From contig JAYEMF010000055.1 in assembly GCA_034717975.1 (NCBI GenBank), positions 1 to 17,961 on the forward strand: a stretch of DNA of 17,961 nt, given 5' to 3'. Under the pieces are notes generated by a model. That model was not told where the DNA came from. It did not search any database and saw only the letters and a program-made list of their open reading frames with translations. Each line of letters starts with the position of its first letter. The first letter of the stretch is position 1. Shown here one piece after another: positions 1 to 17,961 of the stretch. The translations under genes were made by a program, and so were the position numbers. Source of the stretch: Campylobacterota bacterium. GTDB taxonomy: Bacteria > Campylobacterota > Campylobacteria > Campylobacterales > Sulfurimonadaceae.

Positions 1-123
1 AGAAAAAATGAGCTGCTAGTTCTGATCATGGATCAGATTTTACAGGAAGAGTGTTTCATTAATGTTAAACGGAAGGTAATTTTAAATGCTAAATTTTTAA
101 TTTTTAATTTGAAGGGTTTTTAA
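1..123 (+). CDS. possible 3' end of a convergent gene entering from the left edge (RKNELLVLIMDQILQEECFINVKRKV...GF*)
   Basis: Frame 1 is open from base 1 to TAA at 121-123 and looks protein-like. Only 40 codons are visible, and the tail runs through the heptamer array. Confidence 0.3.
   Translation, partial: RKNELLVLIMDQILQEECFINVKRKVILNAKFLIFNLKGF
77..109. repeat. left arm of a 33-bp inverted repeat made of tandem 7-mers (AATTTTA AATGCTA AATTTTT AATTTTT)
   Basis: taattttaaatgctaaatttttaatttttaatt matches the reverse complement of 534-566 at 31/33 positions. Confidence 0.92.
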
Positions 124-459
124 AATAGACGTTAAAAGCTTAATCAGCTCAATACTTTCATTTTGTAAAGCATGTACCTTTTTATTATTTGAAGGTAAAT
201 AGCCGGTCGTCATCAATAAATCAATCCAATACTTTGTTTCTCTGGCTTCTTTTGAAGCTATTGCAAGCTTGGCAATAAAATCTTTTCGACTCTGTGCAGC
301 CTGAGCTTCATTTGCATTTGCTCCAATGGACGTACCTGATCGAAGAAGTTGTTTTGAAAGAATATACTCTTTTTTGTTATCTTGTAAGTATTTACATACA
401 TTCACTATACGAATAGCAAATTCAAATGATTTATTTAAAAGTTGATTATCAGTTTTCAT
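97..459 (-). CDS. four helix bundle protein (23S rRNA intervening-sequence protein / Avd-like family)
   Basis: Family motifs LSKQLLRSGTSIGANANEA, SRKDFIAKLAIASKEARETKYW. ATG at 459 is preferred over 507 because GAGGTG precedes it, giving 120 aa. The stop codon lies inside the left repeat arm. Confidence 0.92.
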   Translation of the reverse strand: MKTDNQLLNKSFEFAIRIVNVCKYLQDNKKEYILSKQLLRSGTSIGANANEAQAAQSRKDFIAKLAIASKEARETKYWIDLLMTTGYLPSNNKKVHALQNESIELIKLLTSILKTLQIKN

Positions 460-533
460 AATCACCTCACATTTTACATCTAAGGCAATTTTACTGACAA
501 AATCCACTTACTCAACAAATTATTTCACTCAGC

Positions 534-566
534 AATTAAAAATTTAAAATTTAGCATTAAAAATTA
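534..566. repeat. right arm of the 33-bp heptamer inverted repeat
   Basis: aattaaaaatttaaaatttagcattaaaaatta, the inverted copy of 77-109. Confidence 0.92.
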
Positions 567-592
567 TCAAAAGAGCTAAATAGCTCTTTTGA
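567..592. other. perfect 12-bp inverted repeat overlapping the amt stop codon
   Basis: tcaaaagagcta-aa-tagctcttttga. The TAG stop of 576..1745 lies in one arm. Confidence 0.8.
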
Positions 593-1745
593 ATTCCGGA
601 TAGGCTTCAACCCCGCACTCGTTAACGTCAAGTCCCTCGACCTGTACGTCATCTTCGGCGCGGAAACGGATGAGCTTGTTAATGCTGAACAGTACAACCA
701 ATGAGGCCGGAAAGACAATACCGAAGACAACAAGCACACCTTTAAGCTGATCCATAAAGCTTATATCGGCGACGAAGATACCAACGGCCAGTGTTCCCCA
801 GACACCATTGACCAGGTGAACGGAAAGGGCACCGACCGGGTCATCGAGTTTGAACTTATCGAACATCGGAACCGCAAAGACAACCAGCGTACCGCCGATC
901 GCACCGATCAGGATCGGCGTATACATATCATAGAGATCCGGGCCGGCAGTGATCGCGACAAGTCCGCCAAGGGCACCATTGAGGATCATCGTGATATCAA
1001 ACAGTTTATAGCGTATATACATCAAGAGACCGGCGATGATCGCTCCGGCAAGTCCGGCTGTGTTGGTATTCATAATAGTCAAGGCTACGGCATCGGCATT
1101 CTCTTTTGAAGCGATCGAACCGACCGACCCTCCGTTGAAACCGAACCAGCCGATCCAGAGCAAAAAAGCGCCCAAAACAACAAGTGGGATGTTGGATGCC
1201 GGGATAACACGGATCTTATTACCCAGATAACGTCCCTTACGCGGTCCCATGATCAAGATCGCTGCCAGAAGTGCCCAACCACCTGTAGAGTGGATAACTG
1301 TTGAACCGGCAAGGTCATACATATTGATATCGAGCATCGTACCATCGAACATATCCGCACCCCATGAAATGTTAACGATGGTCGGGTAGATCAGCGCACC
1401 CATAACAACAGCGAAAACTGCCAACGGTACCATACGTACACGCTCACTCACCCCGCCACTCATAATATTGATAGTCTTCCCGACGAAAGCCATCTGAAAC
1501 ATAAAGGCCGCCCATATACTCATTGAGCTGTTCTCCCATGAACCAAATGCCAGTGTATAACCAACCAGCAAAAAGGCCATGGAGGCAACGGCATAGATCA
1601 TTGTGTTTACTGTCAATACGGCAGTGACATTTTTAGTTCGCACAAGTCCCGCTTCGAGCATGGCAAAGCCCGGTACCATAAAGATGATCAGTGTCATCGT
1701 AAAAAGTGTAAAGAACGTGTCTATAATGTAGGAAAAGTCTGCCAA
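576..1745 (-). CDS. amt: ammonium transporter (second, divergent Amt paralog)
   Basis: Motifs PGFAMLEAGLVRTKN, DLAGSTVIH, GWFGFNGGS, DDPVGALSVH, EGLD..E.G..AYPEF. TTG start with GGAG Shine-Dalgarno. Confidence 0.93.
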   Translation of the reverse strand: MADFSYIIDTFFTLFTMTLIIFMVPGFAMLEAGLVRTKNVTAVLTVNTMIYAVASMAFLLVGYTLAFGSWENSSMSIWAAFMFQMAFVGKTINIMSGGVSERVRMVPLAVFAVVMGALIYPTIVNISWGADMFDGTMLDINMYDLAGSTVIHSTGGWALLAAILIMGPRKGRYLGNKIRVIPASNIPLVVLGAFLLWIGWFGFNGGSVGSIASKENADAVALTIMNTNTAGLAGAIIAGLLMYIRYKLFDITMILNGALGGLVAITAGPDLYDMYTPILIGAIGGTLVVFAVPMFDKFKLDDPVGALSVHLVNGVWGTLAVGIFVADISFMDQLKGVLVVFGIVFPASLVVLFSINKLIRFRAEDDVQVEGLDVNECGVEAYPEFKRAI

Positions 1746-1761
1746 GCAATACTCCGTATTA

Positions 1762-1924
1762 AATTCTAAATTTTTAATTTTAAATGCTTAATTACAAAAA
1801 AAGTCAAGCATTAATAAAAGTTCAAGTATTGTAGCGAAAGAGAATTAGGAAAGATTAGAGAAAATGATTATTTTTTAATCAATCAATAAAAAGCAAAAGA
1901 ATTTAAAATCAACAATTAAACATT
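1762..1924. repeat. gene-less heptamer inverted-array element (arms 1762-1793 and 1897-1924)
   Basis: Left arm AATTCTA AATTTTT AATTTTA AATGCTT AATT. Reverse complement of the right arm AATGTTT AATTGTT GATTTTA AATTCTT (22/28 identity). Same unit type as the arms at 77-109 and 534-566. Confidence 0.7.
1865..1885. promoter_or_regulatory. putative transcription-factor box upstream of amt (copy 1)
   Basis: TGATTATTTTTTAATCAATCA, identical to 3845-3865, containing the palindrome TGATTA-N5-TAATCA. Confidence 0.75.
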
Positions 1925-1925
1925 G

Positions 1926-1948
1926 ACTTTTCCCTAATGGGGAAAAGT
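1926..1948 (-). terminator. hairpin directly after the PII stop codon (terminator or mRNA-stability element)
   Basis: acttttccc-taatg-gggaaaagt, a 9-bp perfect stem. No clear U-tract, so the terminator role is uncertain. Confidence 0.5.
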
Positions 1949-2314
<366 letters not shown>

Positions 2315-2316
2315 TC

Positions 2317-2347
2317 ATAAAGTGAGCGTATTATACTCTCACTTTAT
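2317..2347 (-). repeat. intergenic hairpin with GAGAGTA-loop-TACGCTC core (copy 1)
   Basis: Minus strand reads ATAAAGT GAGAGTA TAA TACGCTC ACTTTAT. Confidence 0.7.
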
Positions 2348-2359
2348 TTAATACTGATT

Positions 2360-3661
2360 TTATAGGTTAAATCCACGTTCACCGTGAACCGACTCATCCA
2401 GACCCATCGACTCTGTCTCTTCATCAACACGTCCGCCGCCTGTAAGTGCCGAAGCGATGTAGTAAACCACTACCGTACCGATCAATGTAAAGATACCTAC
2501 AACAATGACTGACTCAAACTGAACTATGATCTGTCCCATTCTGTCTCCGCTCTCTTTCAATGGACCGTCCCATAGAAGATCTTGATCATTAAGGGCAAAG
2601 ATACCTGTCGCGATCGCACCCCAGAGACCGGCAAGGAAGTGGATACCGAATGCATCAAGGCTATCGTCGTAACCCAGCTTTTTCTTAAGCATAGTAACAC
2701 CGTAAAATGCGATGAGCGCACCGATGATACCGATCAGGAAAGCACCTGTCACATCTACAAAACCTGCCGCCGGTGTAATTGCAACCAGACCGGCGATCGC
2801 ACCTGAAGCCGCACCAAGGAGTGTCGGTTTTTTGTAGACCATAGTCTCGACCGCCATCCATGTCAATGTTGCAACAGCTGCAGCGATGGTAGTCGTCAGG
2901 TAAGCAAGACCGGCAATCTCGTTTGCACCAAACGCTGAACCACCGTTAAATCCGTACCAGCCGAACCATAATAGAACCGCACCAAGGGCCGTAAGAATAA
3001 TGCTGGCCGGTTTCATAGCCGTTTTAGGGTAACCAGCACGTTTACCAACCAAGATTGCAAGAACAAGACCTGCCAGACCACCATTCATGTGTACAACCGT
3101 ACCACCTGCAAAGTCAAGAGCACCTTCGTCAAACAAGAATGCACCATCACCGCCCCAAACCATATGCGTGATCGGTGCATAGACGACAAGTGTCCAGACT
3201 GCAACAAAGACGATCCATGTAGAGAACTTGATGCGCTCAATGACAGAACCGCTGGCGATCGCTACTGTAATAGCCGCGAATGTACCTTGAAATACGATAA
3301 ACACATAAGTAGGATACGAACCGCTAAGATCATTCCAGTTGATACCGCTAAGCATAACATGGGAGAAACCACCAATGACTTTTTGCATTGCTGCACTCTC
3401 TGCCGTACCAAATGCGATTGAGTAGCCTGCGATGATCCAGACAATAAAGGCTGTAACAAACGCACCCATAACCATCGCATAGGTATTGAGAATGTTTTTA
3501 CTGCGCGTCATGCCACCATAGAAAAGTGCCAGACCTGCGGGTGTCATCAACAGTACGAATGCCGTTGAAACCATCATCCATGCAGTATCACCTGCACTCA
3601 ATGTATCTTCAGCCAGTGCCAGTGTCGGCAAAAGCAAAAAGGCTAGAAACCATTTTTTCAT
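2360..3661 (-). CDS. amtB: ammonium transporter AmtB
   Basis: Signal peptide (MKKWFLAFLLLPTLALA), GDTAWMM, DFAGGTVVH, GWYGFNGGS, YDDSLDAFGIH, GLD...HGE. AGGAG Shine-Dalgarno. Confidence 0.97.
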   Translation of the reverse strand: MKKWFLAFLLLPTLALAEDTLSAGDTAWMMVSTAFVLLMTPAGLALFYGGMTRSKNILNTYAMVMGAFVTAFIVWIIAGYSIAFGTAESAAMQKVIGGFSHVMLSGINWNDLSGSYPTYVFIVFQGTFAAITVAIASGSVIERIKFSTWIVFVAVWTLVVYAPITHMVWGGDGAFLFDEGALDFAGGTVVHMNGGLAGLVLAILVGKRAGYPKTAMKPASIILTALGAVLLWFGWYGFNGGSAFGANEIAGLAYLTTTIAAAVATLTWMAVETMVYKKPTLLGAASGAIAGLVAITPAAGFVDVTGAFLIGIIGALIAFYGVTMLKKKLGYDDSLDAFGIHFLAGLWGAIATGIFALNDQDLLWDGPLKESGDRMGQIIVQFESVIVVGIFTLIGTVVVYYIASALTGGGRVDEETESMGLDESVHGERGFNL

Positions 3662-3683
3662 TTATATACTCCTATAAAATCTC

Positions 3684-3712
3684 ATATTATTTGAACAAAG
3701 TCCAAATAATAT
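3684..3712 (-). other. hairpin in the amtB upstream/leader region
   Basis: Minus strand ATATTATTTGGAC-TTT-GTTCAAATAATAT, a 13-bp stem with one G-U pair. Confidence 0.55.
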
Positions 3713-3844
3713 TCAGTCACTAAAGCTATGCCTATCGGCAAGAAAAAAGTCATATTTGATTTTAACTTTTCCATCCAAAAAGATATTTCGGATACTTGAT
3801 AACCAAAGTATAGAATGATTTTTGATTGTTTATAATCATTTTAC

Positions 3845-3865
3845 TGATTATTTTTTAATCAATCA
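3845..3865. promoter_or_regulatory. putative transcription-factor box upstream of amtB (copy 2)
   Basis: Identical 21-mer to 1865-1885. A related site TGATTGTTTATAATCA lies at 3823-3838. Confidence 0.75.
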
Positions 3866-4047
3866 GCATTTTATTTTGCAATCACTCTATTATCTTTCAT
3901 AATATATGATGAGAATAAATTCATCTTTTCTTTTACTATCTCACTCACTTCTATTTGCAGTACATTAAATAAGAGCATAAAAAAACGACTATTAAGTGTT
4001 ATTAAGCTATTATCGATTCCATTATCTTAAATTAGGGCGTTATACAC

Positions 4048-6519
4048 ATGAACGATCTTTTAGACAACAGCGAAGTTCAAAATATCAATATCGAAGACTC
4101 ACTCAAAGGGAGTTACCTTGACTACTCCATGAGTGTTATCGTCGGACGTGCACTGCCGGATGTACGTGACGGTCTCAAACCGGTTCACCGCCGTATCCTC
4201 TACGCGATGGACAAACTCAATCTCTCAGCCGGTGCAAAATATAAAAAATCAGCCCGTATCGTCGGTGACGTTATCGGTCAGTATCACCCGCACGGAGACA
4301 CAGCGGTTTATGACGCACTGGTTCGTATGGCCCAGCCATTCTCGATGCGTATGATGCTCGTCGACGGCCAGGGTAACTTCGGTTCCATCGATGGCGACAA
4401 CGCGGCTGCCATGCGTTATACCGAAGCCCGCATGACAAAGTATGCCGGCGAACTGCTAAAAGACCTCGACAAAGCTACGGTCGATATGGTCGACAACTAC
4501 GACGGAACGACTCAGGAACCCGAAGTTCTTCCTACGCGTGTTCCCAACCTTCTTATCAATGGTTCATCCGGTATCGCTGTCGGTATGGCCACCAATATCC
4601 CGCCGCACAATCCGCGCGAAGTGATGCTCGCACTTAACCACTTTATGGATAATCCGGATGCGACTCTGATCGACCTGATGGAGTTTATCAAAGCACCGGA
4701 TTTCCCAACCGGAGGTACTATCTACGGTAAAAAAGGGATCATAGATGCGTATGAGACAGGCCGTGGCCGCATCAAAGTACGTGCCAAAACACACATTGAG
4801 AAAAAGGGGAACAAAGATGTGATCGTCATCGATGAGCTCCCTTATATGGTTAACAAATCCCGTCTGATCGAAAGTATCGCCAACCTGGTCAAAGACAAGC
4901 AGGTCGAAGGGATCTCAGAGATTCGTGATGAGTCAGACCGTGAAGGTATCCGCGTCGTTGTTGAGCTCAAGCGTGATGCGATGTTTGAGATCGTGCTGAA
5001 CAACCTCTACAAATCAACCAACATGCAGACGACCTTCGGGATCATCATGCTCTCTATCTATAATCAGGAGCCACGTGTCTTCACATTGATCGAGATGCTT
5101 AACCATTTCGTCAATCACCGTAAGACTGTCATCATCCGGCGTACGATCTTTGATCTGGAAAAAGCCAAAGCCAAAGCCCATATCCTGGAAGGTCTAAAAA
5201 AAGCACTTGACCACATCGATGCCATCATCAAACTTATCCGTGCCAGTCAAGATACCGAGTCCGCTAAAAATGGCTTGATCAGCGAGTTTGATTTCTCGGC
5301 CATTCAGGCGCAGGCCATCCTCGATATGCGTCTGCAGAAACTGACCGGACTTGAACGTGAAAAGATCGAAAACGAACTTCGTGAACTCCTTGAGCTCATC
5401 GAATACCTCGAATCGATCCTCAAAAGTGAAGAGGTTCTCAAAGGGATTATCAAAGAGGAGTTTGCAGAAGTTCTTGAGACCTATACCGACGAGCGCCGCA
5501 CAGAGATCGAAGACAACTACGACGATATCGACATCGAAGATCTGATCCCTAATGAGCCGATGGTCGTCACCATCACTCACCGCGGTTACATCAAGCGTGT
5601 ACCGCTTGCTTCCTATGAGAAGCAGCGTCGCGGCGGTAAGGGCAAAACAGCCGTTACCACCTATGAAGATGACTTCATCGAACGGTTCTATACCTGCAAC
5701 ACCCATGACACCCTCATGTTCGTTACCGACCGCGGTCAGCTTCACTGGCTCAAGGTCTACCGTATTCCGGAAGGCTCCCGTACGGCCAAAGGTAAAGCGG
5801 TCGTCAACCTTATCAATCTCCAGGCCGATGAGAAGATCCAGTCGATCATCCCGACAACCGACTTCAGTGAAGAGAAATCACTCGCATTCTTCACCAAATA
5901 CGGTATTGTCAAGCGTACCAATCTCAGCGACTTCTCCAACATCCGAAGCAATGGTGTCCGCGCTATCGTTCTGGATGATAATGATTCACTTATCACCGCC
6001 CATATTACCAACCAGGAGACCAAGTACCTCTTTATTGTCACCAAATTTGCACAATGTATCAAATTTGACATCAATAAAACCCGTGAACAGGGACGTACCA
6101 CCCGCGGTGTCCGTGGTATCAAATTCAAAAAAGATGGCGACTGTGTCGTCGATGCCAATGTCATTAAAAATGATGAGCAGGAGATCCTTACCGTCTGTGA
6201 AAAAGGTATCGGTAAACGTACCACTGCCGAAGAGTATCGCCTGACAAACCGTGCCGGTTCCGGTGTCATCGCCATCAAACTCAATGCTAAAACCGGTACA
6301 ACCGTTGTCGGCTGTGTCATGGTCGATGAGTCGATGGATCTGATGGCCCTGACCAAAGCGGGTAAAATGATCCGTGTCGACATGCAGAGCATCTCCAAAT
6401 CATCACGTAACACCAGCGGTGTCTATATTGTCAAAGGTGATGACGTAGCCGGCATCTCACGCTGTCCAAAAACAGAACAAGATGAAAATGAAAGTGATGA
6501 AGAGCTGGAACTGGAATAG
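4048..6519 (+). CDS. gyrA: DNA gyrase subunit A
   Basis: [22 protein letters not shown], catalytic AAAMRYTE, GyrA box QRRGGKG, acidic C-terminal tail. Confidence 0.99.
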
Positions 6520-6527
6520 TTCTTGCT
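6512..6527 (+). promoter_or_regulatory. sigma54 (-24/-12) promoter for flgP
   Basis: TGGAATAGTTCTTGCT = GG(6513-14)-N10-GC(6525-26), resembling the Campylobacter-type TGGAA..TTGC consensus, 37 nt before the ATG at 6564. Confidence 0.7.
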
Positions 6528-6563
6528 TAAACTCTTGCAATATATTACTGCGAGGAATAACTC

Positions 6564-7064
6564 ATGAAATACTCCCTGCTTCTGGTAGCCCTGCTCGCCA
6601 GCACATCCCTTATGGCTGAGGAAACTCAGTTAATAGAGGGAGAACAAGCTACTGTCACTGCACCTGCACCCATAACCGTCATCTGCAACGATGCACAACA
6701 GGAGAAGTGCGAAAAAGAGAATGTCGAAGCTGAAGAGAAAGTCCTGACTCACAACAGTGATGTTCGCATCTCTGTTGTCGGACAGGGTGTTGCGCCGATG
6801 ACCACTTCATCACCTGCTCAAGCCTATGCCCTGGCCAAACGTGCTGCCATCGCCGACGCCTACCGTCTGATCGCCGAAAAAGTGAAAGGTGTTCGTGTTG
6901 AAGGTCAAGATATCATTAAAAACATGATGGTCAAACGTTCAACGGTCCGTACCTCTGTCGATGCCATGGTTCGTCAAGCGAACATAGTTGAAACGACGTT
7001 CAAAGAAGGTCTGTGCGAAATCGAAATGGAAATCGTGCTTTCACACTCGCAGTTTGCGCGTTAA
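6564..7064 (+). CDS. flgP: LPP20-domain exported protein, FlgP homolog
   Basis: SVVGQGVAP..SPAQAYALAKRAAIADAYRLIAEKVKGVRVEG motif. Position between gyrA and flgR as in C. jejuni. N-terminal signal peptide. Confidence 0.8.
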   Translation: MKYSLLLVALLASTSLMAEETQLIEGEQATVTAPAPITVICNDAQQEKCEKENVEAEEKVLTHNSDVRISVVGQGVAPMTTSSPAQAYALAKRAAIADAYRLIAEKVKGVRVEGQDIIKNMMVKRSTVRTSVDAMVRQANIVETTFKEGLCEIEMEIVLSHSQFAR

Positions 7065-7417
7065 GCACCTTTAACATCCTCTATGCTGATGAGTATATCA
7101 TCAGCTACCGCTCTGTCGTCAGTGACGCCACCCTGACTCATGAGACCCTGACTGTCAGCCGTGCCATGCAAAAATGCAGCGGCACACCTCGCCACTCTAT
7201 CTTACTTGACACCCAGGACTCTGCCAATCTTCATCAGATTCTTCTCAGAGGTTTTGATGATTTTTTTGCATTAATGCAAAAAGAGAAACTTCACATCCGC
7301 CATAGTGAAAAAACCATCAATGGCGTGAACAGCGCACAGACGGTCGTCACCCTGCCACCACACTGTTTTACAGTCGATTTTAATCAAGGTTTAGTTAAAA
7401 TATCCGCCTTAAATTGA
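7013..7417 (+). CDS. small exported protein, probable FlgQ homolog
   Basis: GTG start overlapping flgP, signal-like N-terminus (…NILYA/DEYIISY), two Cys in the mature part. The assignment rests mainly on synteny (flgP-flgQ-flgR). Confidence 0.65.
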   Translation: MRNRNGNRAFTLAVCALSTFNILYADEYIISYRSVVSDATLTHETLTVSRAMQKCSGTPRHSILLDTQDSANLHQILLRGFDDFFALMQKEKLHIRHSEKTINGVNSAQTVVTLPPHCFTVDFNQGLVKISALN

Positions 7418-7432
7418 GTGGCTAAAAGCCGC

Positions 7433-7531
7433 AGGGAAGAGGAAAGTGGGAAGTGGGAAGAGGTAAACGTAACATAATTATTAAAAACACCTCTATTAAT
7501 CCTCTTTCCCCTTCCCTCTTTCCCCTTTCCT
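7433..7531. repeat. gene-less heptamer inverted-array element, purine/pyrimidine type
   Basis: AGGGAAG AGGAAAG TGGGAAG TGGGAAG AGG (7433-7463) versus CCT CTTTCCC CTTCCCT CTTTCCC CTTTCCT (7501-7531). Confidence 0.88.
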
Positions 7532-7557
7532 TTTCACAAAAGGTATTTTTGTGAAAA
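7531..7557 (+). promoter_or_regulatory. perfect 11-bp hairpin covering the flgR SD and GTG start
   Basis: ttttcacaaaa-ggtat-ttttgtgaaaa. Confidence 0.7.
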
Positions 7558-8843
7558 TCGCAATAGTCGAAGACGATATCAATATGCGCAAATCTCTGGA
7601 GATCGCTATGGGCGATTATCCGGAGTTTGAGATCGTCAGTTTTAAGAATGCCAAAGATGCCCTTAAAAAACTCGATGAGAGCTTCGAACTTATCATCACG
7701 GACATCAATATGCCCGGAATGGACGGGATTGAGTTCGTTACAACACTCGATGGCAAATATGAAGTGATCATTATGACCGGCAATGCGACGCTTAGCCGCG
7801 CCATCGAATCGATTCAGCTGGGTGTCAAAGACTTCCTTCTCAAGCCGTTTGAGATCGAAACCCTCATCACTGCCATCAAACGCTCTGATAAAGTTCAAAA
7901 AACCGTTAAGAAAAGCCGTCCAAAAACAAAAAGCAATCAAGGTGCTTTTCTGGCTCAATCACCGGCACTGAACAAATTGCTGAGTGTCACCGATAAAGCA
8001 GCCAAAACAGACGCTTCTATCTTGCTGCTTGGCGAAAGCGGCGTAGGCAAAGAGGTTTTTGCACGCTATATTCACGACAGCTCACCACGCTCAAAGAAGC
8101 CCTTTATCGCAATCAACATGGCTGCCCTGCCGGAGAACCTGATCGAGAGTGAACTCTTCGGATTTGAGAAAGGGGCATTTACCGATGCTATCGAAGCCAA
8201 AGCAGGTCAATTTGAAGCTGCCAACGGCGGTACCCTCTTCCTCGACGAGATCGGTGAGATGCCGTTTGGCGTACAGGCGAAACTGCTTCGTGCTATCCAG
8301 GAGCGTGAGATCAGACGCCTTGGATCATCCAAGTCGGTCAAGATCGATGTACGCATCATATCAGCTACCAATGCCAACCTGGATGAGAAGATAAAAACGA
8401 AAGATTTTCGTGAGGATCTTTACTATCGACTCAATACCATCCCGCTTCATATCCCGCCGCTGCGTGAACGTACCGAAGAGATCTTAGGTATTGCCGAAGC
8501 GATCTTAGAGCAGAACTGTGAACGCTATGGTTTTGAAAGTAAACATTTTGATGAGAGAGCCAAGGAGCAGTTACTAGCCTACAACTGGCCGGGGAATATC
8601 CGTGAGCTGATCTCTGTCGTCGAACGTGCAACCATTTTGAGTGACGGCGATACAATCACGCCTGACGCCCTCTTTCTGGAGAGTCGTGGTCTTAAACCCG
8701 AACGAACTATTGAAACGATGGAACGTGAACTTATCGCCGAGGTACTGCAAAACTGCAACACTCAGCTGGATGTTGCCGCCAAGACACTCGGGATGAGCCA
8801 AAGCGCTTTAAAAAAGAAGATGCAGACCTACGGTCTAGAATAG
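7551..8843 (+). CDS. flgR: sigma54-dependent response regulator (REC-AAA+-Fis HTH), FlgR ortholog
   Basis: Receiver (VEDD, ITDINMPGMDG, KPF), Walker A GESGVGKE, ESELFG, GAFTDA, FLDEIGE, FREDLYYRL, WPGNIREL, C-terminal AAKTLGMS HTH. Synteny with gyrA and asd. Confidence 0.9.
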   Translation: MKIAIVEDDINMRKSLEIAMGDYPEFEIVSFKNAKDALKKLDESFELIITDINMPGMDGIEFVTTLDGKYEVIIMTGNATLSRAIESIQLGVKDFLLKPFEIETLITAIKRSDKVQKTVKKSRPKTKSNQGAFLAQSPALNKLLSVTDKAAKTDASILLLGESGVGKEVFARYIHDSSPRSKKPFIAINMAALPENLIESELFGFEKGAFTDAIEAKAGQFEAANGGTLFLDEIGEMPFGVQAKLLRAIQEREIRRLGSSKSVKIDVRIISATNANLDEKIKTKDFREDLYYRLNTIPLHIPPLRERTEEILGIAEAILEQNCERYGFESKHFDERAKEQLLAYNWPGNIRELISVVERATILSDGDTITPDALFLESRGLKPERTIETMERELIAEVLQNCNTQLDVAAKTLGMSQSALKKKMQTYGLE

Positions 8844-8863
8844 AAAAAAAGGAAACACAATCT

Positions 8864-9889
8864 ATGAAAACATATAATGTAGCGGTAGTCGGTGCCACTG
8901 GTGCCGTAGGTGAGGAGGTCCTCCGTATTTTTGAAGAGATCGATTTCCCGATGAACAAACTCGTTCCATTGGCGAGTGCACGTTCAGCCGGAAACAGCAT
9001 TGAGTTCAACGGCAAAGAGCTGGTAATCAAAGAGCTGACCGAGACTGTCTTTGACGAGGAGGAGATCGAGATAGCCATCTTCAGTGCCGGCGGTTCAATC
9101 TCTGCTAAATTTGCTCCGTTTGCAGCAAAAGCCGGTGCGGTAGTCATCGACAATACCAGCCACTTCCGTATGGATGAAGATGTACCGCTCGTCGTTCCCG
9201 AAGTCAACCCGGAAGATATCAGCCAGTGGCGTAAAAAAGGGGTTATTGCCAACCCCAACTGTTCGACCATTCAGATGGTTCAGGCACTCAAACCACTTGA
9301 CAATGCCTATGACCTTGTGCGTGTAGATGTCAGCACTTACCAGGCGACATCCGGTGCCGGCAAATCAGCGATGGAAGAGCTGGTCCAGCAGATGCAGGAC
9401 TTTTTTGCTTTTAAACTAAATGAATCTGAACACAAAAGCTTCCCGCACCAAATTGCCCTCAATCTCATTCCGCAGATCGACGTCTTTCTAGACAACGACT
9501 ACACGAAAGAGGAGATGAAGATGGTCAATGAGACCGACAAGATCCTGCACAAAGAGGTTGAACTCAGTGCCACCTGTGTACGCGTACCGGTACTGCGTGG
9601 CCACTCCGAATCATTGACACTCACCTTTGACAGTACCGTCGATGCCAACGAAGCGCGTGACATCCTCTCCAAAGCACCAAATATCATCATCCTCGATGAT
9701 CCGAAAGAGAGCGTCTACCCGATGCCGGCTGCCTGTGTCGATCAGAACGAGACCTTTGTCGGGCGTATCCGTAATGACCTCTATCGCGAGAACATGCTGC
9801 ACCTCTTTGTCGTAGCTGACAATCTTCGCGTCGGTGCAGCTACAAATGCTGTCAGAATTGCCCAGAAATGGGTCGAGATGGAGGGATAA
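8864..9889 (+). CDS. asd: aspartate-semialdehyde dehydrogenase
   Basis: VGATGAVG, ANPNCST, STYQATSGAG, CVRVPVLRGHS, DNLRVGAATNA. Confidence 0.98.
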   Translation: MKTYNVAVVGATGAVGEEVLRIFEEIDFPMNKLVPLASARSAGNSIEFNGKELVIKELTETVFDEEEIEIAIFSAGGSISAKFAPFAAKAGAVVIDNTSHFRMDEDVPLVVPEVNPEDISQWRKKGVIANPNCSTIQMVQALKPLDNAYDLVRVDVSTYQATSGAGKSAMEELVQQMQDFFAFKLNESEHKSFPHQIALNLIPQIDVFLDNDYTKEEMKMVNETDKILHKEVELSATCVRVPVLRGHSESLTLTFDSTVDANEARDILSKAPNIIILDDPKESVYPMPAACVDQNETFVGRIRNDLYRENMLHLFVVADNLRVGAATNAVRIAQKWVEMEG

Positions 9890-9890
9890 G

Positions 9891-9928
9891 CCGACTAAAG
9901 AGAGTACTGAATGTACGCTCTTTATCGG
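9891..9928 (+). repeat. intergenic hairpin with GAGAGTA-loop-TACGCTC core (copy 2)
   Basis: CCGAC TAAA GAGAGTA CTGAATG TACGCTC TTTA TCGG, directly after the asd stop. Confidence 0.7.
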
Positions 9929-9963
9929 ATAAAATCCTATAAAAATAGAGAGAAGGAATCTAT

Positions 9964-10476
9964 ATGGAAAAAATATTTGAAAGCAGCTTGTGGAGTTCAC
10001 GATTTATCATAATTCTGGCGGTCATCTTCGGCTTGATCGGTGCCGTCATACTTTTTATTGTTGCCAGTGTTGATGTCTTTGTTACTGCCAAGTATGTCAT
10101 AACAACCTACATCACCCATGCACACCCGGACAAGTTTCACGAAGATGTAGTCGGCGGGATCATCGGTGCGGTTGACCTCTACCTGATCGGTGTTGTGATG
10201 CTGCTCTTCTCCTTTGGACTCTATGAGCTATTTATTTCAGAGATTGATGCGGCCAAAGAGAATGATGAGGACGATCATCAGCTCTTGGCTATTCACTCCC
10301 TTGACCAGCTGAAAGACAAGATCTCAAAGGTTATCGTCATGGTGCTTGTCGTCGGCTTTTTCCAAAAGGTCGGTCAAACCGAATACACTGGTGCTTTAGA
10401 TATGCTCTATCTGGCTCTCTCTATTACCGCTGTTTCCCTAGGACTTTATTTCCTTGGCAAAGTCGGTAAAAAGTAA
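9964..10476 (+). CDS. YqhA/UPF0114 family membrane protein
   Basis: Four hydrophobic segments, LWSSRF, VDLYL, GLYELFIS, SLDQLKDKISKVIV. Confidence 0.88.
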   Translation: MEKIFESSLWSSRFIIILAVIFGLIGAVILFIVASVDVFVTAKYVITTYITHAHPDKFHEDVVGGIIGAVDLYLIGVVMLLFSFGLYELFISEIDAAKENDEDDHQLLAIHSLDQLKDKISKVIVMVLVVGFFQKVGQTEYTGALDMLYLALSITAVSLGLYFLGKVGKK

Positions 10477-10508
10477 TAATAACCAAGAAAACATTTTAAG
10501 GAATAGAT

Positions 10509-11549
10509 TTGAGTAAGATTTTCGTCGATGCCTGTTTTGGCAAACCAACACCCTACACCCCAGTCTGGATGATGCGTCAGGCAGGACGCTACCTTCCTGA
10601 ATACATGAAGGTCCGTGCCGAAGCCGGCAACTTCCTCAATCTTTGTCATGACCCTGAAAAAGCAGCTGAAGTGACCATCCAGCCACTTGATATTGTCGGC
10701 GTTGATGCTGCCATTCTTTTCAGTGACATCCTTGTTATCCCTGATGAGATGGGTATGGACCTGGAGTTCATCAAAGGCGAAGGTCCGAAGTTCAATGACC
10801 CTATTGCTACACAGGAGGATCTCGACAGACTTATTGGTGGGGACGAGGCAGCGAGCAAACTTACTTATGTATTTGACACCATTAAACTGCTAAGAGAACA
10901 GCTCGATGAGAGAGGTGACGAGATAGCACTTATCGGTTTTACCGGTGCACCTTGGACACTGGCTACCTACATGATAGAGGGACAAGGCACAAAGACCTAT
11001 AACATCTGTAAAAAACTGATGTACTCAAATCCTGAACTGCTGCATAACATTCTTGCCAAAGTGACTGAAGTCGTAAAGCTTTACATGGAGAAACAGATCC
11101 AAAGCGGCGTCGATGTCGTTCAGATATTCGACTCATGGGCAGCGGCGATCGAGCCTTCCAAGTATGATGAGTTCTCATGGAAATATATGGTCGAGATCGC
11201 CGAGTACCTTAAAGAGAAGTACCCGCACATCCCTGTCATCATGTTCCCTAAAGGCATTCCTGCATTTTTGGACAAGGTCTATGGCAATTTTGATGTATTT
11301 GGCGTCGATTGGAGTACCCCTATGGAGCTTGCCAAAGAGAAGCTGGGTGACAAGTATGTACTGCAAGGCAACATGGAGCCGACTCGTCTCTACTCCAAAG
11401 CGATGACGACTGAAGCTGTAGAGGCCATCCAAAAGACCATGGGCAGTTCACGTCACATCTTTAACCTGGGTCACGGGATACTGCCAGACGTTCCTGTCGA
11501 AAACGCCATACACTTTGTAAGTGAATGTCAAAGAGTGAGTAAAGTTTAA
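10509..11549 (+). CDS. hemE: uroporphyrinogen decarboxylase
   Basis: [47 protein letters not shown] start with AAGGA Shine-Dalgarno. Confidence 0.98.
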
Positions 11550-11553
11550 TTAT

Positions 11554-11642
11554 GGGAAAGGGGAAAGAGGAAAGAGGAAAGAGGATAGCCTTAAATAGCA
11601 GTCATAACATTCCCCTTTACTCTTCCCTCTTCCCTCTTCCCA
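11554..11642. repeat. gene-less heptamer inverted-array element, purine/pyrimidine type
   Basis: GGGAAAG GGGAAAG AGGAAAG AGGAAAG AGGATAG (11554-11588) versus CATTCCC CTTTACT CTTCCCT CTTCCCT CTTCCCA (11608-11642). Confidence 0.88.
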
Positions 11643-11667
11643 ATTCAAAAAAGAAACTTTTTTGAAT
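11643..11667 (+). promoter_or_regulatory. perfect 11-bp hairpin covering the TTG start of the radical SAM gene
   Basis: attcaaaaaag-aaa-cttttttgaat. Confidence 0.7.
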
Positions 11668-12603
11668 ATAATTTTCGGCCCGGTGAACTCCCGCCGCTTC
11701 GGCGTATCACTGGGTATCGATCTCTCCCCTTCTCATAAACAGTGTAACTTTGACTGTCTCTACTGTGAGCTTGCCCCTGCGGCCACCGTCGATCATCAAA
11801 CGGATATTATCACTGTAGATGAAATCATCGATGCACTGAAAGCAGCACTCAAACAGCATGACAATATTGATGTCATCACGCTTACAGCCAATGGTGAGCC
11901 GACCCTTTACCCGTATCTTAATGAACTTATCGATGCCATCGGTCAGCTTAAAGGCAAAACGGAGACACTGATCCTCACCAACAGTGCTGCCCTTGTAGAT
12001 GAAAAAAGTTTTCATACCCTGCTCAAACTCGATCAGGTCAAACTCTCACTCGATGCAGTTACTCCCGATATCTTTAAAAAGATCGACCGGCCGCATCAGG
12101 GAGTAGACGTTGCAAAGATTGTAGAAGCCGTCGAAACCTTTTCAAAACAGTTCAACGGAAAACTCTTTATCGAAATTCTCTTTGTTCATGGGCTTAACGA
12201 TACCGCCGAAGAGATCAAAAAGCTCAATGATGCACTTTTGGATATTCTGACCACACGTATCGACCTTGGCACGATCGACCGTCCTCCGGCTTATCCGGTC
12301 CAGGGTGTTTCCTACAGTGAGCTACATGCCATCGCTATGCAGTTTGACACATCACTGCCCATTCATATTGCTTCACGCCAACACGCAGAGTCCTGTACTT
12401 CCAGCTACACTACTGAAGATATCATCAACACCCTTGACAAACGACCCCTTACACAAGAAGATATTGAACTGCTGTTTGACCAAGCAAGTAAAATGCGGTT
12501 AAACGAGCTATTGAAAACTGGTAAAATCATCCAACAAGAGACATCCGGTATCCAATTTTTCATCCCTTCAGATAATCTCAGGCGAAAACGACAAAAGTCT
12601 TGA
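11662..12603 (+). CDS. radical SAM protein of unknown function
   Basis: IFGPVNSRRFGVSLGIDL, CNFDCLYC (CxxxCxxC), ANGEPTLYP. Confidence 0.93.
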   Translation: MNIIFGPVNSRRFGVSLGIDLSPSHKQCNFDCLYCELAPAATVDHQTDIITVDEIIDALKAALKQHDNIDVITLTANGEPTLYPYLNELIDAIGQLKGKTETLILTNSAALVDEKSFHTLLKLDQVKLSLDAVTPDIFKKIDRPHQGVDVAKIVEAVETFSKQFNGKLFIEILFVHGLNDTAEEIKKLNDALLDILTTRIDLGTIDRPPAYPVQGVSYSELHAIAMQFDTSLPIHIASRQHAESCTSSYTTEDIINTLDKRPLTQEDIELLFDQASKMRLNELLKTGKIIQQETSGIQFFIPSDNLRRKRQKS

Positions 12604-17506: not shown

Positions 17507-17961
17507 ATGCAAAAATCCCCTACAGCCGTCATCTGTCTCTCTCCCTATTCCGGAGGGATGGAGATAGACAGCATCAAGATGGCTGAAAAACTGGCACCAT
17601 ATTCCAAAACTGTCCTAATAGCCAAAACCGGCCATTTCATTGCCAATGAAGTTGCTTCCAAAAGAGATGACTTTTTCCTTGAAACCATCTCTTTCAACAG
17701 TAATCTCAGTCTTTCAATAATATTTGGCGCACGGAAAATCATTAAAAAATATGACATCAAAAATGTCATTTTCTTTGGGGCGTCCGAACTTAAATCACTC
17801 TATTTTTCCTTCTTGGGTTTGGATATCAACCTGATCATCCGCCATGGGACAACCAAGTCTACCCCAAAAAAAGATTGGTTTCATCGACTGATTTATTCAA
17901 AAGTAAATTATCATATAGCTATCTGCGAGCACCTTGCGAACAATGTGAAAGAAATTATTCC
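17507..17961 (+). CDS. glycosyltransferase, probable GT4 N-terminal domain (truncated by window end)
   Basis: ATG directly after the upstream TAA. Open frame MQKSPTAVICLSPYSGGMEIDSIKMA...IIRHGT...HIAICEHLANNVKE runs to the window end; GGxE-type N-terminus. Absent from the ORF track because it has no stop in the window. Confidence 0.8.
   Translation, partial: MQKSPTAVICLSPYSGGMEIDSIKMAEKLAPYSKTVLIAKTGHFIANEVASKRDDFFLETISFNSNLSLSIIFGARKIIKKYDIKNVIFFGASELKSLYFSFLGLDINLIIRHGTTKSTPKKDWFHRLIYSKVNYHIAICEHLANNVKEII

Follow-up and report, generated by a model that had tools for sequence, protein, structure and literature searches.

Inverted arrays of tandem 7-nucleotide repeats (heptamers) bracket a gene of the four-helix-bundle protein family PF05635 on contig C55 of a Sulfurimonadaceae genome, and hairpins built of such arrays, holding no gene, occupy other gene junctions of the same contig. 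The window referred to throughout is this whole contig, 17,961 nt long; the genome comprises 2.52 Mb in 149 contigs, has 45% G+C and is 99.9% complete. The window contains one complete cassette, two intact gene-less hairpins and one decayed hairpin.

Heptamer arrays and the four-helix-bundle gene of contig C55

Arrays were called with Tandem Repeats Finder (TRF), and predicted folds were compared with dinucleotide shuffles. Inverted matches were scored against 400 random positions of the window's genome (mean 17.2, sd 2.4, maximum 27). TRF reported period-7 arrays at 77-110, 534-566, 1760-1793, 7434-7460, 7500-7530, 11555-11585 and 11620-11641, and none at 1897-1924. The cassette arms, 77-109 and 534-566, are 33 nt long, 94% complementary and enclose the PF05635 gene; when 60-590 was folded as minus-strand RNA, they were paired in the minimum-energy fold (z -4.3). 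The two purine/pyrimidine hairpins, 7433-7531 and 11554-11642, have stems of about 30 bp with a mismatch at each seventh position. Their local inverted scores were 37 (7433-7463 with 7501-7531) and 34 (11551-11590 with 11611-11642), and RNA folds of 7417-7562 and 11546-11672 reached -59.6 kcal/mol (z -7.9) and -45.4 kcal/mol (z -5.3), respectively.

An original prediction, made from the letters of the window, had recognised four sites of one architecture, two of AT type and two of purine type. The units are as it described, and three of the sites (77-566, 7433-7531 and 11554-11642) are solidly real and far beyond chance. The fourth, at 1759-1924 in the glnK-amt spacer, did not hold as a paired element: its halves are only 79% complementary, and the minus-strand fold of 1746-1948 is no better than shuffles (z -1.2, with 24 of 200 shuffles equally good). 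This site consists of one good array and a decayed partner. The spacers of the four paired sites measure 424, 103, 37 and 24 nt; the prediction of a whole gene, 103 and 37 nt was accurate, and its smallest value, about 19 nt, was too low.

Structures have been solved for PF05635, a very large family of no known function. That the cassette carries a four-helix-bundle gene, as had been proposed, was borne out by the profiles of PF05635 (Pfam; E 1.2e-25, 90.2 bits against a cut-off of 33.8) and TIGR02436 (E 1.2e-31, 109.2 bits against a cut-off of 24). By sequence, the protein matched the solved chain 2rld_A (E 1e-33), whose entry has five chains; a Xanthomonas homologue is reported to be a pentamer, as cited in PMC4990558. 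Translation likely starts at the ATG at 459, chosen from homologues, which gives 120 aa. A second four-helix-bundle gene at the right contig end, hinted at by direct repeat D13, was rejected since no protein similarity was found.

The loaded cassette is not inside any rRNA gene. It has the protein-coding amt on one side and 76 nt to the contig edge on the other. The sites had been placed inside operon junctions, and they do lie at junctions of co-directional genes; the loaded copy, however, has its own promoter-like site and follows a terminator-like hairpin 3' of amt, which places it at the 3' end of the glnK-amt unit and not inside an operon junction. As predicted, no transposase or integrase family was matched among the 17 open reading frames (ORFs) of the window in a Pfam scan. 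Rfam found one tRNA in the window and nothing else.

Features are collected in Table 1. The glnK gene is set between two ammonium-transporter paralogues (amt, glnK, amt; 576-3661), all on the minus strand. Neither Pfam nor NCBIfam matched a family for two ORFs, 7013-7417 (134 aa) and 17507-17959 (151 aa, open at the contig end).

Table 1. Repeat elements, small hairpins, signals and genes of the window, with gene names from Pfam matches
Feature	Position	Strand	Remarks
AT-type heptamer array, arm downstream of PF05635 gene	77-109		TRF 4.9 copies
Four-helix-bundle gene, PF05635 / TIGR02436	97-507	-	ORF from GTG at 507
Promoter-like site inside cassette, upstream of PF05635 gene	471-500	-	TTGTCA-18-TAAAAT; 10/12 matches, consensus match only
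AT-type heptamer array, arm upstream of PF05635 gene	534-566		TRF 4.7 copies
Terminator-like hairpin right after amt stop codon, abutting cassette	567-592	-	11-pair stem, T-rich tail
amt	576-1745	-	
AT-type heptamer array in glnK-amt spacer	1759-1793		TRF 4.9 copies; 93% identity with 82-108 (repeat family D15)
Degenerate inverted partner of 1759-1793	1897-1924		complementarity taken over 1762-1789 / 1897-1924
glnK	1949-2287	-	
Second amt	2360-3661	-	
gyrA		+	
LPP20-type lipoprotein gene		+	
Unassigned ORF	7013-7417	+	
Small flanking hairpin	7418-7432	+	6-pair stem, AAA loop; in minimum-energy fold
Gene-less purine/pyrimidine heptamer hairpin upstream of flgR	7433-7531	+	arms 7433-7463, 7501-7531; loop 37 nt
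Small AU-rich hairpin	7532-7558	+	10-pair stem; flgR start codon in 3' half
flgR	7551-8843	+	
asd		+	
UPF0114-family gene		+	
hemE	10509-11549	+	
Gene-less purine/pyrimidine heptamer hairpin, hemE to radical SAM gene	11554-11642	+	arms 11554-11586, 11611-11642
Small hairpin	11643-11668	+	11-pair stem; holds radical SAM start codon
Radical S-adenosylmethionine (SAM) gene	11662-12603	+	
Lipopolysaccharide and sugar genes		+	

Junctions in relatives and palindromes beside the arrays

The junction upstream of flgR measures 136 nt here and 13-105 nt in the 13 relatives that have both flanking genes, and no arrays were present in the seven relatives' junctions inspected. Between hemE and the radical SAM gene the window has 115 nt, against 0-8 nt in 13 of 16 relatives (4 nt in a same-genus relative); the other three have 29, 112 and 661 nt, the last leaving room for an extra gene. 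Judged from these comparisons of sequence, in which no relative examined has the arrays at either junction, the two purine hairpins are insertions. No direct target-site duplication was seen at either junction, where the nearest relatives are too divergent for exact boundaries to be drawn. Comparison of junctions among relatives, which the original prediction had proposed as a check, bore out the presence or absence of the hairpins at flgR and hemE; at the locus downstream of amt, no PF05635 gene is among the matches listed for relatives.

The glnK-amt spacer is 58-269 nt long in 11 of the 14 relatives in which the two genes are paired and 0 nt in the other three. The AT array is absent from all 14, and the spacer of one order-level relative holds a solo array of a different unit. 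Downstream of amt, arrays of other units are present in 3 of 19 relatives. Such use of other units at these two spots suggests either recurrent use of the site or turnover of the unit in place. Quite different units stand at amt-downstream or glnK-amt spots in loci of other genera (L159 in G011, L160 in G015, L154 in G009 and L163 in G021), and several relatives have two glnK-like matches at the glnK-amt locus.

Small palindromes abut the arrays. In the two hairpins that contain the start codons of flgR and of the radical SAM gene, the 5' half repeats the first 6-7 nt of the respective gene in inverted form and is absent in relatives; that of 7532-7558 is missing upstream of flgR in the seven relatives inspected. 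The radical SAM start at 11662 is TTG here and ATG at the aligned position in the same-genus and five other relatives. Perfect palindromes with stems of 6 bp or more were found directly outside the arms at 20 of 58 flanks, compared with 6.4% of 1907 ordinary ORF 3' ends (binomial p ~3e-10). Among 76 loaded elements, palindromes occurred at 13% and 20% of the two outer flanks, at 3-5% of inner flanks and at 2% of controls, and the outer palindromes are homologous among related cassettes of three genomes (L001, L024 and L026). Many of the array-flanking palindromes in the window's genome and in G021 have a C(AAA)G-type triloop.

Array families and their link to PF05635 genes

Two array families occur in the genome, one with the purine unit GGRAAGR and one with the AT-type unit AATKYTW. 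A strict scan found 60 period-7 arrays and a loose scan 171 runs (41 purine, 39 pyrimidine, 50 AT-rich and 41 other). The inverted pairs that had been expected genome-wide were indeed present: pairing of the runs gave 29 paired elements, 22 of which are gene-less hairpins with a spacer of 200 nt or less (14 of purine type, 8 of AT type), next to about 23 solo purine/pyrimidine arrays. In the paired elements of the genome the purine arm is always 5'. Neighbouring genes are co-directional at 16 of the gene-less hairpins, divergent at three, convergent at one and undeterminable at two, and none of the 22 lies within an ORF. Three successive GGRAAGR units gave 39 matches in the genome, compared with three for the reversed control, and any match (1-3 each) in only 4 of 120 other family genomes, two same-genus genomes having 0 and 1. 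The AT pattern gave 10 matches against none for its control, and 1-8 matches in 5 of the 120 relatives. Of the 121 genomes of the family, the window's genome is nearly the only one to have the arrays, and the two same-genus genomes almost lack them.

For 20 gene-less hairpins, loop sequences were compared with the interiors of the three cassettes and with each other, and none was similar above shuffles. Unit variants, too, follow a different order in each arm. With loops unrelated and unit orders different, the gene-less hairpins are neither emptied cassettes nor copies of a master element. The proposal of full and empty forms of one cassette, with emptied cassettes or landing pads, is consequently not supported, and derivation of the gene-less hairpins as deletion remnants of cassettes was rejected on the same loops.

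Two further loci of the genome deserve description. On contig C111 (33765-34204), a cluster of six tRNA genes contains two AT-type heptamer hairpins, both in spacers between the genes; lying inside a stable-RNA transcript, they recall the intervening sequences (IVSs) of rRNA. On contig C118 (5695-6823), a 331-aa ORF (5738-6733) that has a P-loop motif is preceded by a purine array abutting its ATG, and about 60 nt past its stop codon comes a complementary pyrimidine array (pair score 37). The pair represents either a cassette whose cargo differs or two solo arrays.

Of the three PF05635 genes in the window's genome, every one is enclosed by inverted arrays, as the original prediction would have it for the other four-helix-bundle genes. 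Those on contigs C144 and C9 encode the classic protein subtype and have purine arms; that on C55 encodes a second subtype and has AT arms. The genes are thus bracketed by the same two unit families that make up the hairpins, in agreement with the proposal of one system for loaded and gene-less sites. PF05635 was found in 29 of 121 family genomes and in neither of two same-genus genomes.

To extend the comparison, the 220-nt flanks of PF05635 genes were scored for inverted matches, a locus being counted as positive at 28 or more. The 109 loci tested comprised 30 from the family Sulfurimonadaceae and 79 from many phyla; the latter were drawn from 80 kept of 603 relatives, found with a query alignment of the classic subtype alone. 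Inverted arrays flank 76 of the 109 loci. For the second subtype, six loci within the family were checked and all six were positive. The 55 positive loci from the cross-phylum set divide into 39 with period 7 in both arms, 10 with period 8 in both and six with mixed periods. The median aligned arm is 31.5 nt, or about 4.5 units, and the unit varies by genome (GTAAATG, GGAAAAT, ATTGGTG, AAGGTAG, TGAAGTT, ACTCGGA and TTAGTGG among examples). The 5' arm has G>C in 68 of the 76 loci and G<C in three. The PF05635 gene is co-directional with its neighbours at 96 of 103 determinable flanks, 45 flanks being ambiguous. None of 20 family cassettes examined is located in rRNA.

GTRAATR arrays gave 190, 89, 19 and 50 matches in four genomes and none in the window's genome; these four had been selected because they have PF05635 genes, flanked by GTRAATR in three of the genomes and by another unit in the fourth (G100). 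One genome, G094, has a single uninterrupted GTGAATG array of about 68 units (C1:2181181-2181656), compared with the usual 4-5. In samples of 400 kb each, taken from six complete genomes, period-7 arrays with at least four units numbered 0 and 0 in genomes with no PF05635 gene, 0, 2 and 3 in those with one copy and 41 in G021, with five copies; the window's genome, with three copies, had 9.5 per 400 kb. Copy number and period-7 density were correlated (Spearman 0.89, n=7). Arrays of periods 8-11 numbered 0-1 everywhere in these samples, and those of periods 5 and 6 followed no copy-number trend. Each of the five four-helix-bundle genes of G021 has its own flanking unit, and every one of these units recurs without a gene in the sample. 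These results support a link between loaded and gene-less sites as one family or system.

Proposed mechanism and known systems

The sequences themselves show how the elements are built, that the two strong gene-less hairpins are inserted, which way the elements are oriented and that gene and arrays occur together. To our mind there is about an even chance that these observations reflect an IVS-type element system outside rRNA, which would combine read-through transcription, an RNase III stem, a ring protein on arrays and local building of arrays. Two lineages would coexist in the genome, the purine unit with the classic protein subtype and the AT unit with the second subtype, each having given rise, at transcribed junctions between genes and between tRNA genes, to hairpins without a gene and solo arrays that share its unit. 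Read-through from the host operon would first transcribe the elements. Their arms would then pair into a stem of roughly 30 bp, which RNase III may be able to cut in the way shown for rRNA intervening sequences, and the short flanking hairpins could cap the RNA ends that are left. A ring-forming protein would sit on the heptamer arrays, with about one unit per subunit, which would tie the spread or maintenance of arrays to the gene. Arrays would be made or remade locally and not pasted from a master element. We infer each of cleavage, binding and the origin of new arrays; the PF05635 protein probably binds the heptamer arrays. An RNase III gene is present in the genome.

Several results weigh against this IVS-type system. 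Family-profile scans recognised no nuclease, recombinase or polymerase domain in the PF05635 protein, and PADLOC gave no matches for it. The 23S rRNA is absent from the genome assembly, and no reverse transcriptase (PF00078) was matched in this 99.9%-complete genome. Flanking arrays are lacking at 33 of the 109 loci (for instance L035, L037 and L038). G068 has the gene and no arrays in 400 kb, G021 has at least nine unit families for its five genes, and a few array matches each occur in G002, G070, G122 and G130, in which no PF05635 gene was detected. The density correlation comprises seven genomes only, and related genomes are not independent. Finally, arm mismatches on the sense strand of the 76 loci comprise 60 G:U and 104 A:C, and folding of the arms favours antisense RNA in 45 loci and sense RNA in 23, with no difference in eight (Wilcoxon p 0.0007). 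With no excess of G:U and better antisense folding, selection on the sense transcript does not by itself account for the symmetry. Such selection for a stem in the sense RNA is accordingly not supported, and the RNA-stem role put forward in the original prediction, plausible by analogy with rRNA intervening sequences, is not supported by these counts. A DNA-level or protein-binding constraint on arm symmetry is at least as likely.

A further-reaching proposal, which we regard as possible and put forward tentatively, is that the four-helix-bundle ring is the specificity factor of an as yet unrecognised cross-phylum system that makes and spreads arrays of its own 7-base unit at transcribed junctions, building them in situ at breaks or stalled forks and leaving inverted host copies as scars. 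If this were true, the long-noted excess of heptameric repeats in bacteria would be explained, rRNA intervening sequences would be a special case, and Avd would be a domesticated relative. Since the G-rich strand is directed inwards at either end, synthesis of the arrays by a reverse transcriptase or a telomerase-like activity was considered; it was set aside for want of a PF00078 match.

It is unlikely, though worth weighing, that the arrays form a regulon in which the ring is an RNA- or DNA-binding regulator and the junction arrays, including those at its own gene, are operators for processing, stability or translation. Gene and arrays do co-occur, and arrays stand at junctions and beside start codons, with small hairpins holding the flgR and radical SAM starts and the C118 array abutting an ATG; a translational role was proposed for TAACTGA arrays in PMC4679880. 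The occupied junctions, however, belong to unrelated housekeeping genes and tRNA spacers, and close relatives are without arrays at the same junctions. The turnover of units between genera at the same spot resembles a selfish or neutral element more than a conserved regulon.

It is rather doubtful that ordinary heptameric repeats, formed as by-products of DNA structure (G-quadruplex, H-DNA or cruciform) through slippage and template switching, are linked to the gene only indirectly. Array length does range from 3 to about 68 units, purine arrays fit the G3N4 quadruplex pattern, GGGAATC quadruplexes and 70-75 convergent pairs were described in Xanthomonas (PMC4692102), and the palindromes next to arrays include an inverted copy of host sequence, as expected of template switching. 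Such slippage leaves unexplained why 76 of 109 PF05635 genes lie exactly between inverted arrays, and why period-7 arrays are missing from the gene-free genomes sampled while periods 5 and 6 stay at background everywhere; most units (for example GTAAATG, TGAAGTT and the AT-type units) are moreover unable to form quadruplexes. Finally, a non-autonomous transposon akin to a miniature inverted-repeat transposable element (MITE), with gene-less hairpins as copies of a master element, a transposase elsewhere and the four-helix-bundle gene as passenger, would match elements that are short, intergenic, genome-specific, inverted at their ends and present or absent at orthologous sites, but is very unlikely given that loops and unit order differ in every copy (0/20 loops alike), the two junctions compared show no target-site duplication, no transposase family occurs among the 17 window ORFs, and the joint occurrence of gene and matching arms across phyla ill suits random cargo.

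The result links an uncharacterised protein family to unexplained 7-base repeats of bacteria. This genome is a clean natural experiment, as it combines two protein subtypes with a repeat family for each and dozens of hairpins without a gene, and its sister genomes have neither. Hairpins inside operons and tRNA clusters are also relevant to annotation and assembly.

MITEs, repetitive extragenic palindromes (REPs) and bacterial interspersed mosaic elements (BIMEs) are small palindromic elements scattered through intergenic regions, and within operons they can act as RNA hairpins. Unlike them, the elements described here have no conserved core or loop, no target duplication was seen, neither a transposase nor a REP-associated transposase was identified, and the arms are internally periodic. 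Avd of diversity-generating retroelements has a homologous four-helix-bundle fold, and the classic-subtype protein of this genome matched NF033474 weakly, below the cut-off (E 1e-5). Unlike Avd systems, the genome has no reverse transcriptase and no pair of template and variable repeats. A 2023 paper equated PF05635 with Avd, and a 2024 paper described 23S_rRNA_IVP ORFs in rRNA insertions of Candidate Phyla Radiation (CPR) bacteria.

Among the long simple repeats of many bacteria, no class is more over-represented than the heptameric one, which is unexplained, as cited in PMC4692102 and PMC4679880. With 60 strict arrays and 22 gene-less convergent pairs, none in an ORF, the arrays described here belong among such intergenic tandem 7-mers. 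The TAACTGA repeats of Beggiatoaceae (MacGregor, PMC4679880) are likewise abundant, lineage-restricted intergenic heptamers, many ending just upstream of start codons; they differ in being nearly all direct, with one inverted case, and in that no link to PF05635 is made for them. The GGGAATC arrays of Xanthomonas and GGGGAYT arrays of Nostoc (PMC4692102) are intergenic tandem heptamers of mostly about four units with many convergent pairs and the G-rich strand inwards. Rehm et al. counted 70-75 convergent GGGAATC pairs per Xanthomonas genome and read them as quadruplex-forming. These arrays are not associated with insertion sequences and no protein partner is named for them there, unlike the present arrays, which enclose four-helix-bundle genes and occur together with them.

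Beyond the single Coxiella IVS, no link of heptamer arrays to PF05635 was found in the literature (subscription journals being outside the search). The cassette described here differs from rRNA intervening sequences in lying outside rRNA, after amt, with gene-less relatives between protein-coding and tRNA genes, and in having arms that are whole heptamer arrays of genome-specific units with dozens of gene-less companions. In the rRNA intervening sequences of Coxiella burnetii (helix 45) and Leptospira, as reported in PMC4990558, terminal inverted repeats likewise enclose an S23p (PF05635) protein and pair into a stem of about 28-33 bp, and an S23p-bearing IVS is excised by RNase III. Their distribution is also sporadic, and horizontal transfer is suspected. 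The Coxiella IVS of that source has a 28-bp stem and three tandem heptamers whose copy number varies between strains, in likeness to the tandem heptameric repeats described here.

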